Origin: Escherichia coli
Lineage (GTDB): Bacteria; Pseudomonadota; Gammaproteobacteria; Enterobacterales; Enterobacteriaceae
Assembly (NCBI RefSeq): GCF_044324875.1
Contig: NZ_CP172185.1
Reading direction: 5' to 3' (one strand)
Length of the DNA stretch: 64,000 nucleotides
Position 1 is the stretch's first letter. Each line of letters starts with the position of its first letter. The notes under the pieces were generated by a model that was not told the origin of the DNA, did not search any database, and saw nothing but the letters and a program-made list of their open reading frames with translations. Below are positions 4,092-39,042 of the stretch, piece after piece. Made by a program: the position numbers and the translations under genes.

Positions 4092-4985
4092 TTACCAGCG
4101 ACCGGACGCGCCGCCACCGCCAGAAGAACCGCCCCCGCCGCTAAATCCGCCGCCACTTGAGCCGCCACCGGAAGAGGATGAAGAAGAACCTTTTCTTGAA
4201 GCTCTTTCTTTACTGAGTTTTTTGTATTTGGCGCGTAGCTTTTTATTAACGATAAGCCAAAAAATAACCAGTGGTACGATAGCAAAAGGCGTGAGCATAC
4301 CGCAGGCAACGATTAAATTCGTCCATGGTCCTGGCTCGGCAACATAGAGGAATACCATCCCATAAATTCCGCCAGTCAGTGCTATCCAGGGTAAATTCGA
4401 CGGATCGGTAAAAACAATAAAATATGAAAGTACCGCCAGCAATATAATTACAGCAAGCGATAATGGAATAGGGGGATTGATACTGTAATAATCCCCCCTG
4501 TCTTCCGGTAATTCACCATTCAACAGAAGCGCTCCGATATTTTCGCTTGCCAGTGTTAACCCACCCATCAAGTCATCACTTTTGAAGGCTGGGATTAATA
4601 TATTACGGATAATCTTCGCTGCTTGCAGATCGGTAACCACCCCTTCCAGCCCGTAGCCCACTTCTATACGGACAGCATGATCTTCCCAGGCAACCAGCAG
4701 TAAAATACCATCGTTTCGCTGCTTATCTCCCAGTTTCCAGCTATCAAAAACGCGTGTTGCATATTGTTCAATGGTATCGTCTCCGGTGGATGGCACTATT
4801 AATACGGCGACCTGGGCCCGTGTTTTTTGTGTGATATCCTGCAGCTGTTGTGTCAGTGATTGTTGTTCAGACGTGCTTAACGTACCAGTAATATCGGTCA
4901 CCTGTTGGCGCAGCTCCGGCACAGCAATTTGCTGGGCAAGCCCAGGAAGGCACCATAAAGTAAGTAGAAAAAAGATTAAGCGCAT
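4092..4985 (-). CDS. TPM-domain membrane protein (YgcG-like), paralog A
   Basis: 297 aa; signal peptide, TPM-type domain (VAVLIVPSTGDDTIEQYATRVFDSWKLGDK, ILLLVAWEDH), TM helices, Gly/Ser-rich C-terminal tail ending GGGGASGRW. Confidence 0.85.
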   Translation of the reverse strand: MRLIFFLLTLWCLPGLAQQIAVPELRQQVTDITGTLSTSEQQSLTQQLQDITQKTRAQVAVLIVPSTGDDTIEQYATRVFDSWKLGDKQRNDGILLLVAWEDHAVRIEVGYGLEGVVTDLQAAKIIRNILIPAFKSDDLMGGLTLASENIGALLLNGELPEDRGDYYSINPPIPLSLAVIILLAVLSYFIVFTDPSNLPWIALTGGIYGMVFLYVAEPGPWTNLIVACGMLTPFAIVPLVIFWLIVNKKLRAKYKKLSKERASRKGSSSSSSGGGSSGGGFSGGGGSSGGGGASGRW

Positions 4986-4990
4986 AATGA

Positions 4991-6139
4991 TTACCAGCGT
5001 CCGGATGAACCGCCGCCTCCTGAAGAACCACCACCACCGCGGAAAGAATTTCTCGACGAAGAGCGAGAATGAGCATTACGATTCCCCGTTTTCCTGTTGC
5101 TTTTTTCTCCTGACCCCAGTTTAAGATTGCCAGTAAATTTGGCCACAATGATCAGCAGAACTATGCCAGCAATGGTTATTGGGCCGATAAAATGATCAAT
5201 TAGCCCAATAATTGTTGAGATGAATGCAATATCTTTATTACTGGCGAACACCAGGCACCATCCCACAATAATTATCAGCATCACGACAAACAATGAATTT
5301 CGTCCTGATTCACGAACCTGCGGAGTCTTCTTTTGTTTTTTCACTTTAGTGTTTTTATTTTTGGGGGCCAGCATCATAGGAAATGCGCGGCACATATTAA
5401 AAACTACCGCGAGACGCTGCCAGCAGGTTGTTGCTAACAATAAACTAAAACAAACGACCGATACCCGCCGAATGATGACATCGTCCTGAAAGGAGAAAAA
5501 CCAGACCATAGGGGTAATCATCGATATCATCCATATGCCACGCCCTGGGCGGCTGGCAAATCGCCAGAGGACAACGATGGCAACGATCATCAGCAGTGTC
5601 CAGGCAAGACAAGGCAGCGAACGTTGCGGATTAGCAAACAGATGATTGGCTAAAGCATCCAAAGGGCTAAGGTTCGCTTTGATATGGGTAAACTGTGCGA
5701 TGCTTTCAATTCCGCCCGTTAATCCAGCAAAGAGATTGTTTTTTTCGAATTCTGGCTGCATATGGTAACGAACAATTTGCGCAGCTTGTTCCGGCGGCAA
5801 CATCTGTTCCAGTCCATGTCCAATCTTCATTGACGCCAGCCCTTCCGGCCATACGACGAGAATTAAGATACCTTCGCCATATCGCTTCTCTCCAACGGGT
5901 TTCCAGTGATATACCCCGTATCTCTGCGAGGCTGCAAGTTTAATGTTTTTGCCCCCTGTGGTCGGCGTGACCAACACGGCCACCTGGAAGTGGTTTTGCT
6001 GCACGAGAGTCTGTAATTGTTGAGTTAAAGCAGTTTGTTCTTCTGTCGTTAATGTCCCGGTTAAGTCAGTTACTGAAGGCAATTGTTCAGCGAATACCTG
6101 AAAACCGCATAGCATCAGAAGTAAGAGAAAAATACGCAT
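4991..6139 (-). CDS. TPM-domain membrane protein, paralog B with extra internal hydrophobic insertion
   Basis: 382 aa; signal peptide, divergent TPM domain, additional TM segments, C-terminal tail ending GGGGSSGRW. Confidence 0.8.
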   Translation of the reverse strand: MRIFLLLLMLCGFQVFAEQLPSVTDLTGTLTTEEQTALTQQLQTLVQQNHFQVAVLVTPTTGGKNIKLAASQRYGVYHWKPVGEKRYGEGILILVVWPEGLASMKIGHGLEQMLPPEQAAQIVRYHMQPEFEKNNLFAGLTGGIESIAQFTHIKANLSPLDALANHLFANPQRSLPCLAWTLLMIVAIVVLWRFASRPGRGIWMISMITPMVWFFSFQDDVIIRRVSVVCFSLLLATTCWQRLAVVFNMCRAFPMMLAPKNKNTKVKKQKKTPQVRESGRNSLFVVMLIIIVGWCLVFASNKDIAFISTIIGLIDHFIGPITIAGIVLLIIVAKFTGNLKLGSGEKSNRKTGNRNAHSRSSSRNSFRGGGGSSGGGGSSGRW

Positions 6140-6153
6140 ATCAATTCCTTTTG

Positions 6154-7047
6154 TTACCAGCGCCCGGAAGCGCCACCGCCACCAGATGAACCGCCACCAC
6201 CGCTGAAATTGTCATTGTTGAATGAAGAGGATGACGATGATGAATAGTGGGAGGAAGAATTGCTTCTTGTATGGCGTGATGGCTGGTTGGCATCACGCAT
6301 CGAATCCCGAACCTTTTTGCCGAAGGGGGTAAAAGCGATGGCGACAGCCAGGAACGGTGTGGCGAAGCAGAGTAATGTTGCGAGTACTCCCCAGCTTCCG
6401 CTGAAGCCTGCTATAGGTAAAACAAAGGCCAGTACAATAGCTGCGAAGCAAATTACTCCCAGCGTTTTGATATATCCTCTGGCAGAAATAAACGTCAGTA
6501 CTATCGCCCAGACTAACAAAGCCCACCAACCGCTAAAAGGCAAAGGGTGATCGGTCGGTGTTATCGTTGCTAAATTATTCCCCGTCAGACGACTTTCAAT
6601 ATCGCTGATTCCCTTTTGCAAACCACCAGCCAGGTCCCCTTTTTTAAATGCCGGAATAATACTGTTGCGAATAATTTTCCCGGACTGTGCATCCGTAATA
6701 ATACCTTCCAGTCCGTAACCGATTTCAATACGCACGGTATGATCCTGCCAGGCGACTAACAGTAGAACGCCATCATCGTGGTCTTTATCACCCGGTTTCC
6801 AGCTATCGAATACCCGCGTTGCGTACTGCTCGATGGTTTCATCGCCTGTTGTTTCAACCACTAACACGACCAACTGTGCGTTGTTTTTTTGCGTCAGGGC
6901 TTTAATCTGGTTGGTCAGGGTGTTTACTTCACTGTTTGTCAATGTGCCGGTTAAGTCATTCACATACCTGGGTGATTCAGGTACTGGAATTTGTGTGGCA
7001 AACACAGATGAACAGAAGAAAGCCATAAGGAAGATAAAATTTCGCAT
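6154..7047 (-). CDS. TPM-domain membrane protein, paralog C
   Basis: ORF 6154..7077; start moved to internal ATG at 7047 (MRNFIFLMAFF signal peptide, GGGGAAG 4 nt upstream); tail ends GGGGASGRW. Confidence 0.8.
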   Translation of the reverse strand: MRNFIFLMAFFCSSVFATQIPVPESPRYVNDLTGTLTNSEVNTLTNQIKALTQKNNAQLVVLVVETTGDETIEQYATRVFDSWKPGDKDHDDGVLLLVAWQDHTVRIEIGYGLEGIITDAQSGKIIRNSIIPAFKKGDLAGGLQKGISDIESRLTGNNLATITPTDHPLPFSGWWALLVWAIVLTFISARGYIKTLGVICFAAIVLAFVLPIAGFSGSWGVLATLLCFATPFLAVAIAFTPFGKKVRDSMRDANQPSRHTRSNSSSHYSSSSSSSFNNDNFSGGGGSSGGGGASGRW

Positions 7048-7060
7048 ATAACTTCCCCGC

Positions 7061-7663
7061 TTAATGCGCATTAGCATTCTGGCTAAAATCTATTATTGGT
7101 GCTTTACTCACAGCTGCGACGTCATCCGGCAAATAATTTTTCTTCGGTGTGTAATCCATGACCTTTGCGGTTAATACAGCGGGGAATTTGCGGATAGTGA
7201 CATTATATTGTTCAATGGCTTTAATATATCTTCCTCGCGCAACGGCAATTCTATTTTCACTTCCTTCGAGCTGTACCATTAAATTTTGATAGAGTTCCTG
7301 AGCTTTTAAATCAGGGTAACGTTCACTAATTATCGTTAACTGACCGAGAGTGCGAGACACCTGCGCCTGGGCTTGTTGCCAGGCTTGTAATTTTTGCGCA
7401 TCTCCCGGAGCTTGCTGAAGATCGCTACTGGCGCGATTAGCCTGGCTACGTGCCAATGTTACGGCTTCCAGTACCTCTTGTTCATGGCTGGAATAACCTT
7501 TAATACTGGCGACAAGATTAGGAATAAGATCGGCGCGACGTTGATATTGATTCAATACCTCAGACCAGGAGGCGTTAACCTGCTCATCATAGGTTTGAAT
7601 ATCGTTATATCCACAGCCTGATAAATTGGCAATAAATATAATTACGATGAATATCCTGAGCAT
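7061..7663 (-). CDS. LemA-family lipoprotein
   Basis: 200 aa; lipobox LSGC near N-terminus; LemA-like coiled region; first gene of a co-directional lemA-TPM-TPM-TPM run. Confidence 0.8.
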   Translation of the reverse strand: MLRIFIVIIFIANLSGCGYNDIQTYDEQVNASWSEVLNQYQRRADLIPNLVASIKGYSSHEQEVLEAVTLARSQANRASSDLQQAPGDAQKLQAWQQAQAQVSRTLGQLTIISERYPDLKAQELYQNLMVQLEGSENRIAVARGRYIKAIEQYNVTIRKFPAVLTAKVMDYTPKKNYLPDDVAAVSKAPIIDFSQNANAH

Positions 7664-8845: not shown

Positions 8846-9118
8846 GAGTTCCCCGCGCCAGCGGGGATAAACCGCTTCATCTGTCGGGCTAACTGGACAA
8901 AGAAACGAGTTCCCCGCGCCAGCGGGGATAAACCGTCGGTTTGACATCAAAGAAGCCATCAATCAGGGAGTTCCCCGCGCCAGCGGGGATAAACCGGTCT
9001 GGCCATAGGAACAAAGAAATTTGTCTTTGAGTTCCCCACGTCAGCGGGGATAAACCGGACACAGAGCGCCGCTATAGCGCCTATGCCAAGAGTTCCCCGC
9101 GCCAGCGGGGATAAACCA
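8846..9118 (+). CRISPR. Type I-E CRISPR array, 5 repeats / 4 spacers (29-bp repeat GAGTTCCCCGCGCCAGCGGGGATAAACCG, 32-bp spacers)
   Basis: Repeats start at 8846, 8907, 8968, 9029, 9090 (61-bp period); repeat 4 has two substitutions, repeat 5 ends A instead of G. Confidence 0.97.
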
Positions 9119-9571
9119 CCATATAACCCGTTATCTCTTTCTCAAGTTTTTATATTAGCAGTACTTGTAATAAGCAACATATCCACGTAACACCTCATGT
9201 TCAAAATAGTTCTCCATGCCAGAGAAGTTCACAATTATCGATACAAAAAATTAAATTTAATCAAAGTGTTATTTGTATGATTCTTAAATCGTTAAGAAAT
9301 TTTAATATATTATTTTTTTAATATTAATTAATGCCTGTTAATTTTTTCTTTAGAATAACAGTGTATTTTTTAAGCTTATTATTCATTGATTAAGTAATAA
9401 ATCTGGAAATTTGTCTTTGTTTTGAGGCTAATGAGTGATTTTACATAATCGCCTCTATACGCTGTTGATGAATAGTTCTTATGAATAAAGATATCCAGTT
9501 CATACTTTAAGTGAAAATTGATAAAGTGCGATTCGTATTGTCTTTTATTCTAAAGACATCGAGTGTAGTTA

Positions 9572-9709
9572 ATATTCCTTGTAAAAACAGGGATAAACCG
9601 AACTAGTTAAAGTTTTTATTATGTTCCCTGCATCAGCGGGGATAAACCGGACTTGTTATCATTTTTTAAGTTGTCGAACTTATGTTCCCCGCGTCAGCGG
9701 GGATAACCA
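9572..9709 (+). CRISPR. Degenerate CRISPR remnant (2 recognisable repeats at 9621 and 9682 with one 32-bp spacer, plus a partial repeat ending 9600)
   Basis: ATGTTCCCTGCATCAGCGGGGATAAACCG and ATGTTCCCCGCGTCAGCGGGGATAACC read directly; no convincing leader. Confidence 0.65.
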
Positions 9710-9755
9710 TTCAGGTATGTTCAGGCCGGGCAGTTTCCCGCCCGGTCTTCCTCAC

Positions 9756-15259: not shown

Positions 15260-16597
15260 ATGAACACTTCACCGGTGCGAATGGATGATTTACCGCTTAA
15301 CCGTTTTCACTGTCGAATTGCTGCGCTCACTTTCGGCGCACACCTGACCGACGGTTATGTTCTAGGCGTCATTGGTTACGCCATTATTCAGCTTACGCCC
15401 GCCATGCAACTGACGCCGTTTATGGCGGGTATGATCGGCGGCTCGGCGCTCCTTGGTTTGTTTCTTGGCAGCCTGGTTCTTGGGTGGATCTCCGACCATA
15501 TTGGTCGGCAAAAAATCTTCACCTTCAGCTTTTTGCTGATTACGCTCGCTTCGTTCTTGCAATTTTTTGCCACCACGCCAGAGCATCTTATTGGATTGCG
15601 CATTTTGATCGGCATTGGTCTGGGAGGCGATTACTCAGTCGGTCACACCTTGCTGGCTGAATTTTCCCCGCGCCGCCATCGCGGTATTTTGCTGGGCGCA
15701 TTCAGTGTGGTGTGGACCGTAGGCTATGTGCTGGCAAGTATTGCCGGACATCACTTTATTACCGAAAGCCCGGAGGCCTGGCGCTGGCTGCTGGCATCAG
15801 CGGCGTTACCAGCCTTGCTGATTACGCTGCTACGTTGGGGCACGCCGGAATCGCCACGCTGGCTACTGCGCCAGGGGCGTTTTGCTGAAGCTCACGCTAT
15901 CGTGCATCGCTACTTTGGTCCCCATGTTTTACTGGGCGATGAAGTGGCAACGGCGACCCATAAACACATCAAAACATTGTTCTCTTCGCGCTACTGGCGG
16001 CGCACAGCGTTTAACAGCGTCTTCTTTGTCTGCCTCGTAATCCCATGGTTTGTGATTTATACCTGGCTGCCAACTATCGCCCAAACTATTGGTCTGGAAG
16101 ATGCGCTGACAGCCAGCCTGATGCTTAATGCGTTGTTAATTGTGGGCGCGCTGCTGGGATTAGTTCTGACGCACCTGCTGGCACATCGCAAATTTTTGCT
16201 GGGAAGTTTTTTGCTGCTGGCGGCAACGCTGGTCGTGATGGCCTGTTTGCCTTCCGGCAGTTCATTAACGCTGCTGCTTTTTGTTCTCTTCAGCACCACC
16301 ATTTCGGCAGTCAGTAATCTGGTGGGCATTTTGCCTGCGGAAAGTTTTCCTACTGACATTCGCTCGCTGGGCGTCGGTTTTGCCACCGCCATGAGTCGGT
16401 TGGGCGCGGCAGTAAGTACGGGCCTGCTGCCGTGGGTGCTGGCGCAGTGGGGAATGCAAGTCACCTTATTGCTCCTGGCGGCAGTGTTGTTGGTTGGTTT
16501 TGTCGTGACCTGGCTATGGGCACCAGAAACCAAAGCACTCCCGCTGGTGGCGGCGGGAAATGTAGGAGGTGCGAATGAACATTCTGTTAGCGTTTAA
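15260..16597 (+). CDS. ygcS: MFS transporter
   Basis: ORF 15188..16597; start moved to ATG 15260 (MNTSPVRMDD) with GGGG SD-like upstream. Confidence 0.85.
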   Translation: MNTSPVRMDDLPLNRFHCRIAALTFGAHLTDGYVLGVIGYAIIQLTPAMQLTPFMAGMIGGSALLGLFLGSLVLGWISDHIGRQKIFTFSFLLITLASFLQFFATTPEHLIGLRILIGIGLGGDYSVGHTLLAEFSPRRHRGILLGAFSVVWTVGYVLASIAGHHFITESPEAWRWLLASAALPALLITLLRWGTPESPRWLLRQGRFAEAHAIVHRYFGPHVLLGDEVATATHKHIKTLFSSRYWRRTAFNSVFFVCLVIPWFVIYTWLPTIAQTIGLEDALTASLMLNALLIVGALLGLVLTHLLAHRKFLLGSFLLLAATLVVMACLPSGSSLTLLLFVLFSTTISAVSNLVGILPAESFPTDIRSLGVGFATAMSRLGAAVSTGLLPWVLAQWGMQVTLLLLAAVLLVGFVVTWLWAPETKALPLVAAGNVGGANEHSVSV

Positions 16598-17354
16598 AGC
16601 CGAACCGGATGTCGGAATGCTGGCGGAAAAAGAGTGGCAGGCGGCGGCTCAGGGTAATAGCGGACCGGATGTTTCGCTTCTGCGAAGTTTACTCGGTGCT
16701 GATGAACAGGCTGCCGCCGCGCTGCTGTTGGCGCAGAGAAAAAACGGTACGTCGATGTCTTTAACCGCGTTGAGCATGGGGGATGAACGGGCGTTGCACT
16801 GGCTGCGCTATCTCATGGCTCTTGGGTTTGAGGAAGCTGTATTGCTGGAGACGGTGGCAGATCTGCGCTTTGCGCCGGAATTTGTCGCTCGCCATATTGC
16901 CGAATGGCAGCGTCAGAATCCGCTGGATCTGATAATTACCGGCTGCCAAAGCAGCGAAGGGCAGAATGGGCAAACGCCATTTTTGCTGGCGGAAATGCTG
17001 GGCTGGCCCTGCTTCACCCAGGTGGAGCGTTTTACTCTCGACGCGCCGTTTATCACCCTTGAACAGCGTACTGAAAACGGGCTGCGCTGTTGCCGGGTTC
17101 GCTTGCCTGCGGTGATTGCCGTGCGTCAGTGCGGTGAAGTGGCCTTGCCAGTACCGGGAATGCGTCAGCGAATGGCGGCGGGGAAAGCAGCAATTATCCG
17201 TAAAACTGTTGCTGCCGAATTGCCAGCGATGCTGTGTCTGCAACTGGCAAGAGCAGAGCAACAACGCGGAGCGACGCTGATTGATGGGCAAACGGTAGCA
17301 GAAAAAGCGCAAAAGCTATGGCAGGACTATTTACGCCAAAGGATGCAGCCATGA
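16575..17354 (+). CDS. ygcR: Electron transfer flavoprotein beta-subunit-like protein
   Basis: ORF 16569..17354; EtfB/FixA-like; stop overlaps ygcQ start (ATGA). Confidence 0.82.
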   Translation: MNILLAFKAEPDVGMLAEKEWQAAAQGNSGPDVSLLRSLLGADEQAAAALLLAQRKNGTSMSLTALSMGDERALHWLRYLMALGFEEAVLLETVADLRFAPEFVARHIAEWQRQNPLDLIITGCQSSEGQNGQTPFLLAEMLGWPCFTQVERFTLDAPFITLEQRTENGLRCCRVRLPAVIAVRQCGEVALPVPGMRQRMAAGKAAIIRKTVAAELPAMLCLQLARAEQQRGATLIDGQTVAEKAQKLWQDYLRQRMQP

Positions 17355-18211
17355 ATATCGCAATTGTGACAATAAATCAGGAGAATGCCGCAATAGCGAG
17401 CTGGCAGGCGGCGCAGGATTTCAGCGGTTGTACCCTGGCGCACTGGAAGATTGAACCTCAGCCCGCTGTGGCGGAACAGGTGCTGGATGCGCTGGTGGAA
17501 CAGTGGCAGCGAACGCCTGCGGACGTTGTTCTCTTTCCGCCGGGAACGTTTGGCGATGAACTGTCGACCCGGCTGGCCTGGCGTTTACATGGTGCAAGCA
17601 TCTGCCAGGTGACTTCGTTAGATATTCCAACCGTAAGCGTGCGCAAATCCCACTGGGGAAATGCGCTAACGGCGACGCTGCAAACAGAAAAACGCCCGCT
17701 ATGCCTTTCCCTGGCGCGTCAGGCGGGAGCAGCGAAAAACGCCACGTTGCCCTCTGGTATGCAGCAACTGAACATTGTCCCAGGTGCGCTTCCCGACTGG
17801 CTGGTTAGCATAGAGAATCTGAAAAATGTTAGCCGCGACCCATTAGCTGAAGCCAGACGGGTGCTGGTGGTGGGGCAGGGCGGAGAGGCAGATAACCAGG
17901 AAATCGCTATGCTGGCAGAAAAGCTGGGAGCCGAAGTGGGCTACAGTCGGGCACGAGTGATGAACGGTGGCGTTGATGCCGAAAAAGTGATTGGTATTTC
18001 TGGACATCTGCTGGCACCTGAGGTGTGTATTGTTGTTGGCGCTTCCGGCGCAGCAGCGTTAATGGCGGGCGTACGCAATAGCAAGTTTGTGGTGGCGATT
18101 AATCATGACGCCAGCGCGGCGGTATTTTCACAGGCAGATGTTGGCGTGGTTGATGACTGGAAAGCGGTGCTGGAGGCTCTGGTGACAAACATTCACGCAG
18201 ATTGCCAATAA
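17351..18211 (+). CDS. ygcQ: Electron transfer flavoprotein alpha-subunit-like protein
   Basis: ORF 17318..18211; start set at ATG 17351 overlapping ygcR stop; EtfA/FixB-like C-terminal FAD domain. Confidence 0.82.
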   Translation: MNIAIVTINQENAAIASWQAAQDFSGCTLAHWKIEPQPAVAEQVLDALVEQWQRTPADVVLFPPGTFGDELSTRLAWRLHGASICQVTSLDIPTVSVRKSHWGNALTATLQTEKRPLCLSLARQAGAAKNATLPSGMQQLNIVPGALPDWLVSIENLKNVSRDPLAEARRVLVVGQGGEADNQEIAMLAEKLGAEVGYSRARVMNGGVDAEKVIGISGHLLAPEVCIVVGASGAAALMAGVRNSKFVVAINHDASAAVFSQADVGVVDDWKAVLEALVTNIHADCQ

Positions 18212-18357: not shown

Positions 18358-18933
18358 TCAAAGCAATTTTTTCGCTAACGTCCAGACCCCGGTATTCGTG
18401 GTGGAAAGCGCCACAACACCCGCGTTAATCGCATTACGCGCATCTTCTTCATCGCACACCAGCCCGCCGGCAATCAGCGGTTGGCGGATTTTCTCCGTCA
18501 CCCAGCCTAGCACTTTAGGCATACAGCCTGGCAGGATCTCAATACAATCCGGATTCGATTGCGCAACTTGCTTATCAATGTTGTGAAACGAAATCGAATC
18601 AACAATAAACAGGCGATGAATACAGAAAAAACCTTCCGCTCTTGCCGCTTTTAGCATCGATGCTTTCGTGCTGATAATGCCGTCCGCCTCGGTCACCAGT
18701 TTCAGAAACTGAATCACCACTTCTTTGTTCGATGCGCCTTCCAGCAAATCAACATGAATAAAGGCATATTTTCCGGCGTTTTTAATCTTTTTAACGATAT
18801 TACTGATGGTGCAGATATTGCCGTACAACACGGAAATAAACTGGCATTCAGAGTCGATTGCCAGTTGCAGGCTGGCATTATCTTTAACGGCAGCAATCAC
18901 CGGATTCTGGCGGAGCAGGTGTAAGAGGGGCAT
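18358..18933 (-). CDS. ygcP: GlpP-family putative RNA-binding antiterminator
   Basis: 191 aa; matches glycerol-3-phosphate-responsive antiterminator family as I recognise it. Confidence 0.8.
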   Translation of the reverse strand: MPLLHLLRQNPVIAAVKDNASLQLAIDSECQFISVLYGNICTISNIVKKIKNAGKYAFIHVDLLEGASNKEVVIQFLKLVTEADGIISTKASMLKAARAEGFFCIHRLFIVDSISFHNIDKQVAQSNPDCIEILPGCMPKVLGWVTEKIRQPLIAGGLVCDEEDARNAINAGVVALSTTNTGVWTLAKKLL

Positions 18934-18949
18934 AAATTATCCTTATTAT

Positions 18950-19210
18950 TTATCCAAAGCGGTAGGTGATGCCGAATCCGGAAGGCGGATAGTGCCACTG
19001 TTGTAGCGTTTTTTCATCGCACAGCAAACGGCAGGTGCCGCACTCCAGACAATTACGATAATCAACGTGCAAATCACCCTCCGGTGTGAGCGAAAAAAGA
19101 CCAGCCGGACAAGCGTTAATCAACTGTTGTGCCGTCTGGCGCTCAACGGAGTCTGCCGGAACAATATGTGGCGCATCAGCAGCGCGCCAGAGATTACGGG
19201 CTACAGACAT
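18950..19210 (-). CDS. ygcO: Ferredoxin-like protein (FixX-like)
   Basis: ORF 18950..19246; start set at ATG 19210 overlapping the ygcN stop; 4-Cys motif CLECGTCRLLC. Confidence 0.8.
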   Translation of the reverse strand: MSVARNLWRAADAPHIVPADSVERQTAQQLINACPAGLFSLTPEGDLHVDYRNCLECGTCRLLCDEKTLQQWHYPPSGFGITYRFG

Positions 19211-20502
19211 CGAATACTCCTGACAACATCGCCCGCCAGATGCCACAGGCCATGACGACGTAAATGACGCCAGAATAACTGGCGCAGCGGTGGAACAGGT
19301 TTATCACCCTGATCCCATAAATCACGGGAAATATCCTGCATTAACGCAGGCCACGCCCGATACCAGCCAGGGCGTTGCAAAAGCGCCGGAACATGCTGAT
19401 AACGCTGTAAAACATCCCACAGCAGGCTGCGCTCTACGTTGTGATGATAAAGCGGAAACAGATTTTGCGGCTCGCGGTGCTGGCAGGCGCTTATTAGCGT
19501 TTGTGCCGCCGCCTGCGCGCCAGTTAGCGCCATATCCATGCCGCGCACGGAAATTCCGGTATTGACGCAACTGCGCAACGCATCGCCCACCAGCAGTCAG
19601 CCGTTACCGGCGTATTGCATCGGCATACTGTGTAAGCCACCTTCTGGCACCAGATGCGCACCATACTCCAGTGATTCCGTGTTTTTGATAAGCGGGCGCA
19701 CTGCCGGATGCGTTTTAAAGCGAGCCAGCAGCTCGCTTGCCGGAACACGACTTTGCGTAAGGGAAGAGAGCGGGCAAACAATCCCTAACGAGAGCGTTTG
19801 TTGATTAGTATAAAGAAATGCGCCGCCGGGTAAGTCATCACAGATCCCGCCGCTGAACAGCAACGCTGCGCCTTCGTTATTCTCCAGATGAAAACGTTCT
19901 TCAATAGCGGATGTTTCCAGCGACAGCACTTCTTTGATCCCCAACGCCATCGCTTCGCCAGCAGGACGAGTCACTAACCCGTGACGTTCAGCCAGGACGC
20001 TGTTGGCACCTTCTGCCAGCACCACATAACGGGCGCGGAGAATATCGTCACCACAAATGACACCACACACCCTGCCGTTTTCTTCATACAGCGCATCCAC
20101 CGTCGCACCGGGGATGCATTCGACACCTTCTTTTTCGGCTTCGGCAACCAGCCACGGATCGAACCGTGCACGTAATACACTCCAGGATTCACCGCCGGGC
20201 TGTAAGCTGGAAAACGTCGTTGCGCCATCCGGCGTTAGCAGAGAAAGGCTTTCGTGAGTGATGCGTCGTTCAAGAGGCGCGGTCAGATGAAATTGCGGGA
20301 GGAGTTCCGCGAGCGCATGGGTGTATAAACGCCCGCCGGAAAGATTTTTGCTGCCGGGGATTTCAGCGCGTTCCAGTAACAGAACGGACAAACCTGCCCG
20401 CGCGCAGCGTAAAGCACAAGCGGTACCTGCTATACCCGCACCAATAATAATAATGTCGCAGTTGTCTTCCATGTCATGCCCCAGATATCCAGAACACAAC
20501 AC
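19201..20502 (-). pseudogene. ygcN: FAD-dependent oxidoreductase (FixC / ETF-QO-like) interrupted by in-frame TGA
   Basis: Two track ORFs (19597..20502 and 19201..19590) are in the same frame, separated by TGA at 19597..19599 (..MQYAGNG * LLVGDALRS..); N-terminal FAD fold IIIIGAGIAGTACAL. Confidence 0.6.
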
Positions 20503-25968: not shown

Positions 25969-26319
25969 CCACCACGCGGGGGTAAAACCCCGCGTATTGA
26001 ATTGTGATGGTTTGGTCTCCTGCACCCTTTTTTAATTTATATTGTTTATGTGAATATTATGCCTATGTTTATTATTCATATATATTACGGATGAAAATTA
26101 TTTGATTATTCATAATGTGCAAAATGGCATCTGAATCGATCGCAGTTTGGCATTCGAATCGATCATGATTTGGCATCCATCTCCGATCACAGTTTGGCAT
26201 CACAATCGATCACGATTTGGCATGCTTCCGATCATTGATTGGCATCCTGCCAGTCACTCCGGGAATTAACTCTTTTCACCACAGTCTCCATTGCCGTGTT
26301 TAAACCAGTGGAGACGTCA

Positions 26320-27885
26320 ATGTCCAGAAAGAGAAAATCCAGGAGCACTATGGAAACCTGTTTTAAGATCCTTCAGCTCAAGTTCGACAAGAAGCTGACT
26401 AACCGTTGTATCGGACTGACGTTACACATCAGCGCCTCAACCGTTTTTGAGGTTCTTGCCCGCTTCAAAGCCTCTTCTCTGTCATGGCCATTACCTGCTG
26501 ATATATCCCATGACACGCTGGAGAAACTCATTTTTCCGCCCAAAGACACCTTTGCATCAGAGCTTGTAATGCCTGACATGTTGTACTTCGATACGGAAAT
26601 GAGAAAACCAGGTGTGACGCGGCAACTGTTGTGGATGGAATACAAGGCACAGGCGGGTAACAAAGCGATGGGATACTCGCACTTCTGCCGTTGCTACCGG
26701 GAGTGGAAAAAAACGCGACGTCTCTCCATGCGCCAGGAGCATCGTGCCGGCGAAAAGCTTTTTATCGACTTCTGTGGTCCTACGGTTCCTGTTATTAATC
26801 CGGACACCGGTGAGATACGCCGCGTGGCAATCTTCGTGGCCGTAATGGGGGCGTCCAACTATACCTACGTTGAAGCGTGCGAAGGTCAGGACATGATGTC
26901 ATGGTTAAATGCCCACAGCCGTTGCCTGACCTTCCTGGGCGGCGTACCGAAGCTGCTCATCCCCGATAACCTCAGAAGCGCAGTGAAAAAGGCCGATCGA
27001 TATGAGCCTGTCATCAACGACAGTTATCAGGCACTGGCTGAGCACTATGGCACGGTTATCATCCCGGCCCGACCACGCAAACCTAAAGATAAACCAAAAG
27101 CAGAAAACGGCGTCCTCATCGTTGAACGATGGCTTCTTGCCCGCATCCGTAATGAAACCTTCCACACGCTCAGGGCGCTGAATGCGCGCCTTAGGGAGTT
27201 ACTGACAGACATGAATAACCGGCCAATGAAGGGGTACGGCAATCAAACCCGTGCAGAACGCTTCCGCATACTGGATGCGCCAGCACTCTCTCCGCTGCCT
27301 CTGGCACCTTATGAATACACGGAATACAAAGCTGTGAAGGTTGGCCCTGACTACCACGTTGAATATGCCCGTCACTGGTACTCCGTTCCACACGAACTGG
27401 TCGGTCAGCGTCTGTCACTGAAGGCGGGGCAGTCGGTGGTACAGCTCTGGCACAAGGGGCAGTGTGTGGCGCAACATCCGCGCAGCACACATGAATATAA
27501 ACACACAACCAATCCGCTTCACATGCCAGAGCGCCACCGGCAGCACGGGACATGGACACCGGAACGCCTGATCGAGCAGGGAAAACGTACGGGCCCGTCC
27601 ACAGGCCGGGTGGTTGAATCCATGCTGAAGGCAAAACCCCATCCGGAACTGGCTTATCGTGCAGTTCTGGGGCTGCTGGCACTTCAGAAAAAATACGGCC
27701 CGGAACGGCTGGAAAAGGCCTGTTACGTTGCCCTGCACTATAACGCCCCTGACAGACGCTTTATCGACAATCTGCTGCGTCACCATCGGGAGAACCTGGA
27801 GCTTCCATTATCCCGCCAGGGCGAACAACATCCGGCATATGCTTCAGAGCATGAAAACCTGCGTGGTCCGGGCTACTACCACTGA
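26320..27885 (+). CDS. istA: IS21-family transposase IstA
   Basis: ORF 26239..27885; start set at ATG 26320 (MSRKRK..); N-terminal HTH region and DDE-type core. Confidence 0.85.
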   Translation: MSRKRKSRSTMETCFKILQLKFDKKLTNRCIGLTLHISASTVFEVLARFKASSLSWPLPADISHDTLEKLIFPPKDTFASELVMPDMLYFDTEMRKPGVTRQLLWMEYKAQAGNKAMGYSHFCRCYREWKKTRRLSMRQEHRAGEKLFIDFCGPTVPVINPDTGEIRRVAIFVAVMGASNYTYVEACEGQDMMSWLNAHSRCLTFLGGVPKLLIPDNLRSAVKKADRYEPVINDSYQALAEHYGTVIIPARPRKPKDKPKAENGVLIVERWLLARIRNETFHTLRALNARLRELLTDMNNRPMKGYGNQTRAERFRILDAPALSPLPLAPYEYTEYKAVKVGPDYHVEYARHWYSVPHELVGQRLSLKAGQSVVQLWHKGQCVAQHPRSTHEYKHTTNPLHMPERHRQHGTWTPERLIEQGKRTGPSTGRVVESMLKAKPHPELAYRAVLGLLALQKKYGPERLEKACYVALHYNAPDRRFIDNLLRHHRENLELPLSRQGEQHPAYASEHENLRGPGYYH

Positions 27886-27901
27886 CAGAAGGAACAACAG
27901 T

Positions 27902-28657
27902 ATGAGTGATAACCTGTTAAACAAACTGACCCAACTGAAACTCCCGGCGATGGCCGGGAGCCTGATACGGCAGCGGGAAACGCCTCAGACCTACGACGAA
28001 CTGTCGTTCGAGGAAAGGCTGACGCTGCTGGTTGATGACGAGCTTCTGAGCAGGGAAAACAGCCGTGTGGCACGGTTGAGAAAAAATGCCGGCCTGAAAT
28101 ACCAGGCAACACCGGAAGGGCTGCGCTATCCGGCCTCAAGAGGTCTGCGGGCTGAACAGATGAGAGAACTGCTGAACGGCCACTACATAACCCACAGGAA
28201 AAACCTGCTGATAACCGGTCCGACAGGATGTGGCAAGAGCTGGATAGCCAATGCGCTGGGCGAACAGGCATGTCGACAGAAACACAGCGTCCGGTACTGT
28301 AGAACCGGGCGATTACTGGAACAACTGGCTCAGGGACGTGTTGATGGCAGCTGGCTGAAATATCTGAAACAGTTGCAAAAAATACAGGTTCTAATCCTGG
28401 ACGATCTGGGGCTGGAACAGTTAAGTAACGCCCAGTGTAATGACCTTCTGGAGCTCATAGAGGATCGTTACGGACAAAGCAGCACGATAGTGGTAAGCCA
28501 GTTCCCGGTAGATAAATGGCATGGTCTGATGGAGAACCCAACAACAGCAGATGCCATCCTGGACAGACTGGTACATAACTCACACCGAGTGGTCCTTCAG
28601 GGAGAGTCACTGAGGAAAAATCCCCCGGTAGTGGAAAGCAGCGAAAAAACGCGTTAA
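27902..28657 (+). CDS. istB: IS21-family ATP-binding helper protein IstB
   Basis: ORF 27659..28657; start set at ATG 27902 (MSDNLLNKLTQL); Walker A GPTGCGKS, Walker B ILDDLG. Confidence 0.88.
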   Translation: MSDNLLNKLTQLKLPAMAGSLIRQRETPQTYDELSFEERLTLLVDDELLSRENSRVARLRKNAGLKYQATPEGLRYPASRGLRAEQMRELLNGHYITHRKNLLITGPTGCGKSWIANALGEQACRQKHSVRYCRTGRLLEQLAQGRVDGSWLKYLKQLQKIQVLILDDLGLEQLSNAQCNDLLELIEDRYGQSSTIVVSQFPVDKWHGLMENPTTADAILDRLVHNSHRVVLQGESLRKNPPVVESSEKTR

Positions 28658-28808
28658 AAAGCGGTAGAAAAAGTTAAGTTCCCGGTTGATCGAATGGATG
28701 CGAATCGCTGATCGGACTTCGATGCCAATCCGTGATCGAATAGAGCGGAATACGCACATAATGTAAATATTTTATTGAACGATATATATCACAGATAATT
28801 TTTAATAT

Positions 28809-37370: not shown

Positions 37371-37466
37371 GTTAGACGTTCTTTAAAAATAAGGAAATGT
37401 TTGAATTTAGTTGGTAGATTGTTGATGTGGAATAAATTTGTTTAAAAACAGATATGTATGCTTAGT
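37371..37466 (+). promoter_or_regulatory. CRISPR leader for cas-adjacent array
   Basis: AT-rich 96 bp between cas2 stop and first repeat; contains AGTTGGTAGATTGT at 37409..37422. Confidence 0.75.
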
Positions 37467-37983
37467 GTGTTCCCCGCGCCAGCGGGGATAAACCGCTTTT
37501 GTTTCTGATTTCTACGCCTGTGGGTAAGTGTTCCCCGCGCCAGCGGGGATAAACCGGAGCAACTACTCGCAGCACAACAGGCAGGTAGGTGTTCCCCGCG
37601 CCAGCGGGGATAAACCGTTTTCTCTAATTACAGTGATTTTTCAAAATCCGTGTTCCCCGCGCCAGCGGGGATAAACCGCGATTCAAAAATAAAATGACGA
37701 CGGAGGAGGCGTGTTCCCCGCGCCAGCGGGGATAAACCGCCGTCGAAGTGACCATGCTCTTTCATTGTGATGTGTTCCCCGCGCCAGCGGGGATAAACCG
37801 AACACAGCGTAAAACCGTCGCAGCCATGCCGAGAGTTCCCCGCGCCAGTGGGGATAAACCGATTGGTCGGTTATGCATCCTGCTAACCAGATTGTGTTCC
37901 CCGCACCAGCGGGGATAAACCGTAATATTAGACTAATGTTTTTTTGTTGAGTTCGTGTTCCCCCGCCACTGCGGTAGAACTCC
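37467..37983 (+). CRISPR. Type I-E CRISPR array, 9 repeats / 8 spacers (repeat GTGTTCCCCGCGCCAGCGGGGATAAACCG; terminal repeat degenerate)
   Basis: Repeats start at 37467, 37528, 37589, 37650, 37711, 37772, 37833, 37894, 37955 (61-bp period); repeats 7 and 8 carry point changes; repeat 9 is GTGTTCCCCCGCCACTGCGGTAGAACTCC. Confidence 0.97.
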
Positions 37984-38004: not shown

Positions 38005-39042
38005 TCAAGACGCCTTCGCCAGCTCCTTCACCAGCGGTAGCATTATCCGCATAACATCACGGCAGCGACGTTCTATTCTTCCTGGAAGTGCCTTATCAAT
38101 ATGTTGTTGATTATCCAGTCTTACGTCATGCCAGCTATTTCCCGCAGGGAATGCAGCTGTTTTTGCGCGTTGCTGATAACCATCCTTATTCCCAAGATTC
38201 CAATTTGTTGCTTCTACCGAAAGTACGGCAATACCGGCTTTGTCGAAAACTTCGGCGTCATTACAACAGCCAGTACCCTTCGGATAATTTTTATTCAAAC
38301 CCGGATTGGTCGTTGCGGCAATTCCATGACTACGCGCAATTGCCAGTGCCCTGTCGCGCGTTAATTTCCTTACTGCTTCAGGGGTTTTTACACCACTGTT
38401 GAAATACAATTTATCGCCAACAATTAAGTTATCGAGATTAATCACCAGCAGCGTATTTTTCTTTTCGGTGTCACTCATCCGCTTGAGTAAATTCTCAGCT
38501 CCTAATTTCCCTTCCTCTTCACCACTGGTCGCCACAAATCGAATACCATACTCGGTAGGCGTATTTTTCAGGCGTTCTGCCAGTTCCAGCATGACACCTA
38601 AACCTGCGGCGTTATCATCCATTCCTTGTAACGTCAGTCCGCCGAGATTGGCATCGGCGTCAGCATCGCTCAGCGGGGCGTAAGTATCCAGATGCGCCAT
38701 AATGATGATCTGCTGCGGCGCTTTGCCTTCATGAGCGGCAATCACCGTACTTCCCGTCACGTTATGCCAGCTCTTGCGATTATCGCGGGCGGTATAAATA
38801 TACCGACTATTAAATGTCCGAATATCACTGCGATAACCCATTTGCTGAAACTGTTGGCGAATATAATCGGCAGATAACATTTCTGCAGGAGTTCCGGTCA
38901 TGCGTCCCGGAAAGAAAGTAGCAATATGTCGTGCCTGGGTATTAGCAAAATCGCCAGGTTTAGGTGACGAGGCGTGTACGGGGAGAATAAAGCATACGCC
39001 GAGCGCCAGGGCAGCGGTACGGTGGCGCAATGCGGAAAACAT
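38005..39042 (-). CDS. iap: Alkaline phosphatase isozyme conversion aminopeptidase (M28 family)
   Basis: 345 aa with signal peptide; position flanking the CRISPR array. Confidence 0.92.
   Translation of the reverse strand: MFSALRHRTAALALGVCFILPVHASSPKPGDFANTQARHIATFFPGRMTGTPAEMLSADYIRQQFQQMGYRSDIRTFNSRYIYTARDNRKSWHNVTGSTVIAAHEGKAPQQIIIMAHLDTYAPLSDADADANLGGLTLQGMDDNAAGLGVMLELAERLKNTPTEYGIRFVATSGEEEGKLGAENLLKRMSDTEKKNTLLVINLDNLIVGDKLYFNSGVKTPEAVRKLTRDRALAIARSHGIAATTNPGLNKNYPKGTGCCNDAEVFDKAGIAVLSVEATNWNLGNKDGYQQRAKTAAFPAGNSWHDVRLDNQQHIDKALPGRIERRCRDVMRIMLPLVKELAKAS

Follow-up and report, generated by a model that had tools for sequence, protein, structure and literature searches.

In our study, the ygcN gene of Escherichia coli was found to be interrupted by an in-frame TGA at codon 292, and the gene is very probably an ordinary, evolutionarily recent, lineage-specific pseudogene that arose from one nonsense point mutation. 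The window, that is, the whole stretch of 64,000 nucleotides that was analysed, contained ygcN as a single 1272-nt minus-strand frame (window 20472..19201) of 423 codons and a stop. The translation of this frame reads ...HSMPMQYAGNG*LLVGDALRS..., where codon 292 is the sole internal stop, and a normal TAG was present at the end. The sequence-only reading had described a TGA within 19594-19602 that splits ygcN into two minus-strand ORFs of one frame, 19597..20502 and 19201..19590. The stop was located at 19599-19597 on the minus strand, and the ORF finder listed exactly the same pair. The pair is not a chance juxtaposition, because the frame aligns without gaps to the full-length ygcN of E. coli 042. 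The features of the locus are as follows.

19201..20472, minus strand: ygcN pseudogene, FixC/ETF-quinone-oxidoreductase-like flavoprotein (gap-free alignment to the annotated 042 ygcN)
19600..20472, minus strand: translated 5' fragment, codons 1-291, retaining the GxGxxG motif and the ETFQO_UQ-bd region
19599..19597, minus strand: premature TGA, ygcN codon 292, followed by C (UGA-C context)
19204..19596, minus strand: untranslated 3' remnant, codons 293-423, containing the GDA motif
18950..19210, minus strand: ygcO, FixX-like ferredoxin, intact (NF011993 FixX, E=1e-21)
18358..18933, minus strand: ygcP, glycerol-3-phosphate-responsive antiterminator family, intact, downstream of ygcN/ygcO
17351..18211, plus strand: ygcQ, intact, annotated as electron transfer flavoprotein alpha / FixB-like
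16575..17354, plus strand: ygcR, intact, annotated as electron transfer flavoprotein beta / FixA-like

The ancestral codon and the identity of ygcN

The mutated base is window position 19597, where a T is present on the plus strand and an A on the coding strand (coding nucleotide 876). A single transition took place at this position, G>A on the coding strand and C>T on the plus strand. Codon 292 was TGG (Trp) in the ygcN of E. coli 042, VCSW5, and MEW. In five public E. coli assemblies (L011-L015), ygcN was found to differ from the window allele at 1 of 1272 bases, and this sole difference was coding nucleotide 876, with a G there and an A in the window. The 'repaired' YgcN of 423 aa, which is the window sequence with W292, was identical to P0106, a protein found on 36 contigs in public data. 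The single transition from TGG to TGA, which the sequence-only reading had put forward, is thus borne out by the TGG of the orthologues and by the one-base difference from the L011-L015 alleles; a single G>A change on the coding strand has turned the codon for Trp292 into the stop. A deamination hotspot at a Dcm site was considered for the lesion and rejected, as no CCWGG was found on inspection of the local sequence (GGCTGGCTG / CAGCCAGCC).

A hydrophobic or aromatic residue had also been expected at position 292. The hydrophobic character of the position was retained among the homologues, but Trp was not strictly conserved: the equivalent residue is Trp in the E. coli alleles, Val in the FixC of T. 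maritima, and Leu in the pig ETF-QO. Compared with 042, the window ygcN contained 14 synonymous changes and 4 other amino-acid changes, and its differences to relatives were mostly synonymous. The carriers of the TGA showed no differences from one another within ygcN. The mutation is evolutionarily recent, since ygcN is without other lesions, the carriers are identical, and all the ygc neighbours are of full length.

The window region matched 5424 of the 5426 complete RefSeq E. coli genomes, in which the gene is annotated as ygcN, 'FAD-dependent oxidoreductase'. The YgcN of E. coli (NF007450 / PRK10015, a FixC paralogue) shares with the window gene the locus, the neighbours, and a nucleotide identity of 98.5-99.9% over 1272 nt. 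The E. coli relatives contain TGG at codon 292, whereas the predicted window product, with 291 of the 423 residues, stays under the cut-off of the family. The closest solved relative of the full-length YgcN orthologue was the FixC of T. maritima EtfABCX (7koe_C, E=2e-56, residues 4-418), followed by the pig ETF-ubiquinone oxidoreductase (PDB 2GMH). The N-terminal GxGxxG dinucleotide-binding motif was present as GAGIAG at residues 11-16 (window 20425-20442), and the Pfam matches to DAO, FAD_binding_3, and NAD_binding_8 begin at residues 5-9 in the 042 YgcN. The ETFQO_UQ-bd domain (PF21162) was found at residues 176-273 of the 042 YgcN (E=1.3e-6); the corresponding region of ygcN lies upstream of the stop and carries few substitutions in the window relative to 042. 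FixC (7KOE chain C) and ETF-QO (2GMH) have in common with the window gene the GDA after a hydrophobic strand, the match to the ubiquinone-binding domain, and the adjacent FixX/Etf-like partner genes. They translate the GDA motif, whereas the window ygcN leaves the GDA and all that follows untranslated.

The gene ygcN is situated between queD and ygcO, and ygcP, ygcQ/ygcR, ygcS, ygcU, and ygcW are found further on. The genes ygcQ and ygcR carry PF00766/PF01012. The match to FixC 7koe_C, the FixX-like ygcO, and the nearby Etf genes ygcQ and ygcR agree with the label 'FixC-like partner of Etf proteins' that the gene had been given. The ATG of ygcO lies within the end of ygcN, with an overlap of 10 nt between the two genes, and is preceded by its own AGGAG 7 nt upstream, so that translation of ygcO probably persists. 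No clear C-rich, G-poor tract was found downstream of the stop by simple C/G content. The approximately 390 untranslated nt located 3' of the stop may cause Rho-dependent polarity on ygcO and ygcP.

Occurrence of the TGA allele and its genomic background

The TGA allele of ygcN is already in public databases, where it is split into two ORFs or left uncalled. The YgcN product of 291 aa is on record exactly (P0001 / SRB26725.1, E. coli; about 118 contigs), and the 112-aa ORF downstream of the stop (19539..19201) is public as SRB26724.1. The same TGA was found in three Logan sequencing runs (L003, L004, and L010) and in one NCBI assembly (L009, GCA_029450875.1), all of which were 99.99-100% identical to the window. 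In the NCBI assembly, ygcN was covered by no recorded CDS, in keeping with its treatment as a pseudogene by the NCBI pipeline.

The sequence-only reading had allowed for an assembly error, the real codon being TGG. A single-base departure from intact alleles looks as an error of sequencing or assembly would, and the source lineage is without a complete RefSeq genome in the collection, but an error is hardly credible: the TGA recurs in at least four separately assembled records (the three Logan runs and the NCBI assembly), the truncated product is present on the contigs counted above, and the site of codon 292 is not a homopolymer. As the identical TGA occurs in independent assemblies, an assembly error confined to the source genome is excluded at the level of the assemblies, which were compared in place of raw reads.

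The allele was found to be rare. Of the complete RefSeq E. coli genomes, 4958 were matched by a probe of 81 nt that spans the stop, but none of them showed 100% identity and the best had one mismatch; an exact 39-nt pattern across the TGA had 0 matches in species-representative genomes. Among the complete RefSeq E. coli genomes (n=5426), none exceeded about 98.4-98.8% identity to the window in stretches of 16-24 kb. The lineage of the window is unrepresented among these genomes. A survey of the literature returned no functional study of YgcN and no report of the W292* allele. The intact version of the window ygcN allele in L011-L015 was found in other backgrounds, where the flanks were only 98.5-99.8% identical to the window, which suggests recombinational mosaicism at the ygcN locus.

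Several other features were observed in the window. An IS21-family element of 2638 bp was present at 26119-28756 on the plus strand, containing istA/istB, being ISSso4-like, and showing 99.5-100% identity to copies in many E. coli. It was inserted between a hok/gef-family gene and cas3 with a flanking direct duplication (CATAATGT), which may be 5-8 bp, the end of the element being ambiguous. The insertion is younger than the ygcN mutation, since it is absent from the otherwise identical L003 and from L011-L015. The type I-E CRISPR arrays contained 29-nt repeats of the form GTGTTCCCCGCGCCAGCGGGGATAAACCG with a spacing of 61 nt. One array (37466-37922) with at least 8 repeats was located downstream of the cas operon, before a 345-aa ORF (38005..39042), and two short, partly degenerate arrays (8846-9119 and 9621-9710) were located between queE and ygcE; we take these positions to be the usual CRISPR loci of E. 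coli. Four consecutive ORFs were found on the minus strand between eno and queE (4092-7663). One of them encodes a 200-aa LemA/MamQ-like protein, and the products of 307 and 297 aa match the Psb32 (photosystem II repair) family weakly. The 382-aa protein from the same region matched no NCBIfam family. No tRNA gene was found in the 64,000 nt of the window.

The predicted product and the reading of the UGA

Ribosomes should stop at codon 292 and release a fragment of 291 residues. The GDA motif occupies codons 296-298 (window 19579-19587), four codons past the stop, and aligns with the GDA of FixC 7koe_C. It is presumably part of the flavin site, contacting the flavin as in other members of this flavoprotein superfamily. 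The predicted product ends before the GDA motif and is 131 residues short at the C-terminus. The 291-aa YgcN scored 294 bits against the NCBIfam family NF007450, whose cut-off is 466, and covered profile positions 3-291 of 429. Judged from its sequence, ygcN is a member of the family by descent, and its predicted product is not a complete member. From the missing GDA and C-terminus we infer a loss of YgcN function, in support of the earlier proposal that a stop just before LLVGDA inactivates the gene. With such a fragment, the ygcQ/R-ygcN/O module would lose all or nearly all of its ETF-to-quinone oxidoreductase step.

The only plausible bypass of the stop would be an unprogrammed misreading of the UGA by Trp-tRNA(Trp), which should yield YgcN in a small fraction of translations; such YgcN would be wild-type, because the ancestral residue is Trp. 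A UGA that is followed by a C is reportedly the weakest termination context in E. coli. The RF2 of K-12 is unusually weak, and natural isolates terminate at UGA better. As the RF2 of natural isolates is more active than that of K-12, read-through in the carriers is probably below the value obtained with a K-12 reporter. In E. coli, Trp-tRNA(Trp) competes with RF2 for the UGA and decodes it at a low rate; in that reporter, read-through amounted to about 2% (37 C) and 4% (25 C) (PMC10570021). The residual wild-type YgcN from the UGA-C stop could exceed a negligible level, and the TGA allele is possibly a leaky null and not a programmed event. It is a further step to regard ygcN as a leaky yet functional gene, which is down-regulated and not dead because read-through gives enough wild-type enzyme, and we consider this step unlikely. 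The insertion of the ancestral Trp, the reporter values of about 2-4%, and the intactness of the remaining ORF and of the entire ygc cluster speak for it. The intactness, however, is equally explained by a very recent mutation, the carriers being identical across ygcN, and the better termination at UGA in natural isolates than in K-12 would lower the yield. Moreover, the stop is without a structure or a conserved context that promotes read-through, and no orthologue retains a stop at 292 except for one independent TAG allele.

A programmed recoding of the UGA, as selenocysteine or as a conserved read-through site, is exceedingly improbable. UGA is the Sec codon, YgcN is a redox protein, and E. 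coli possesses the Sec machinery; the selenoprotein genes fdhF, fdnG, and fdoG of E. coli have in common with the window ygcN an in-frame UGA in the gene of a redox enzyme. These genes, however, contain a SECIS with the UGA, whereas the window ygcN is without a SECIS, its homologues show no Cys or Sec at the equivalent position, and its stop is unconserved. A stretch of 76 nt that starts just before the UGA folded at -26.4 kcal/mol, the mean of the shuffles being -25.45 kcal/mol (z=-0.34), which gives no SECIS-like hairpin, and Rfam returned no SECIS-type match, the sole match at E<=10 being a chance snoRNA on the opposite strand. The sequence-only reading had seen no obvious hairpin of this kind by eye, and both the fold and Rfam concur. 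The homologues contain Trp, Val, or Leu at position 292, never Cys or Sec, and the alignment with FixC points to a beta-strand position before the GDA, not a catalytic one. The stop is absent from the 4958 matched complete genomes and is one step from TGG. For programmed read-through, neither a conserved stop (0 of these 4958 genomes being identical across it) nor a structured element downstream was found. Orthologues that share a recoded TGA, which the earlier reading had also envisaged, were not encountered; the orthologues carry TGG, with no recoding signal. An alternative genetic code was rejected as well, because TGA ends 7 of the 28 large ORFs in the window.

It is also very unlikely that the two ORFs encode a split enzyme, in which re-initiation at the GTG of codon 295 or the ATG of codon 312 would give two polypeptides that reassemble. 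The GTG lies 6 nt past the stop (ORF 19201..19590), and the downstream ORF of 112 aa is predicted by gene callers. However, no Shine-Dalgarno sequence was seen before the GTG or the ATG when the sequence was read by eye, the break falls inside the flavin-binding core formed by the strand and the GDA, and the fragment started at the ATG is wholly without the GDA motif. We know of no natural two-piece member of the family that is split at YgcN position 292. The nonsense pseudogene remains the preferred reading of the locus.

Other lesions of ygcN and the meaning of the allele

The gene ygcN is dispensable in E. coli. No match to ygcN was found in 299 of the 5426 complete genomes (5.5%), and the protein cluster of the truncated YgcN also includes frameshifted E. 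coli forms (P0002, P0005, P0011, and P0014). In the E. albertii proteins P0003, P0004, and P0007 of the same cluster, YgcN residues 1-291 run in frame into the last ~70-80 residues of the FGGY sugar kinase YgcE, which implies that everything from ygcO to yqcE has been deleted in some E. albertii strains. The records L007 and L008, from a second E. coli lineage, contained a TAG at ygcN codon 292 (6874-6876 in each), and their ygcN differed from that of the window at 58 of 1272 positions (4.6%); the TAG is an event separate from the TGA of the window. The TAG allele of L007/L008 was absent from the complete RefSeq genomes. The clustering puts products of like length together, and for this reason the coincidence at codon 292 is not to be over-read. 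In all, 103 codons of ygcN are one step from a stop.

The loss of ygcN may even be selected, with the UGA-C stop here acting as a condition-dependent dimmer that leaves a trickle of wild-type enzyme, but this is improbable. The TGA and the TAG at codon 292, the frameshifts, the ygcN-ygcE fusion of E. albertii, and the absence of the gene from 5.5% of the genomes may be cited in its favour; the same facts are explained by the bias of cluster membership together with plain neutral decay. The lineage-specific nonsense pseudogenes of E. coli and Shigella likewise show a single step from sense to stop, an ancestral allele that still circulates, a dispensable gene, and independent disruptions. Compared with these, the only twist of the window ygcN is that tRNA(Trp), on misreading the UGA, would put the original residue back.

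The two ORFs should be annotated together, as a single ygcN pseudogene that contains an internal stop, whereas SRB26725.1 and SRB26724.1 are now listed as two 'putative FAD-dependent oxidoreductase' genes. With its single-base difference, the W292* allele provides a clean marker of one E. coli lineage. If the substrate of the ygc cluster is found, the natural W292* strains and their relatives with TGG, which differ by one base in ygcN, would provide an isogenic-like pair. The allele adds further evidence that the ygcQR-ygcNO electron-transfer module is dispensable.
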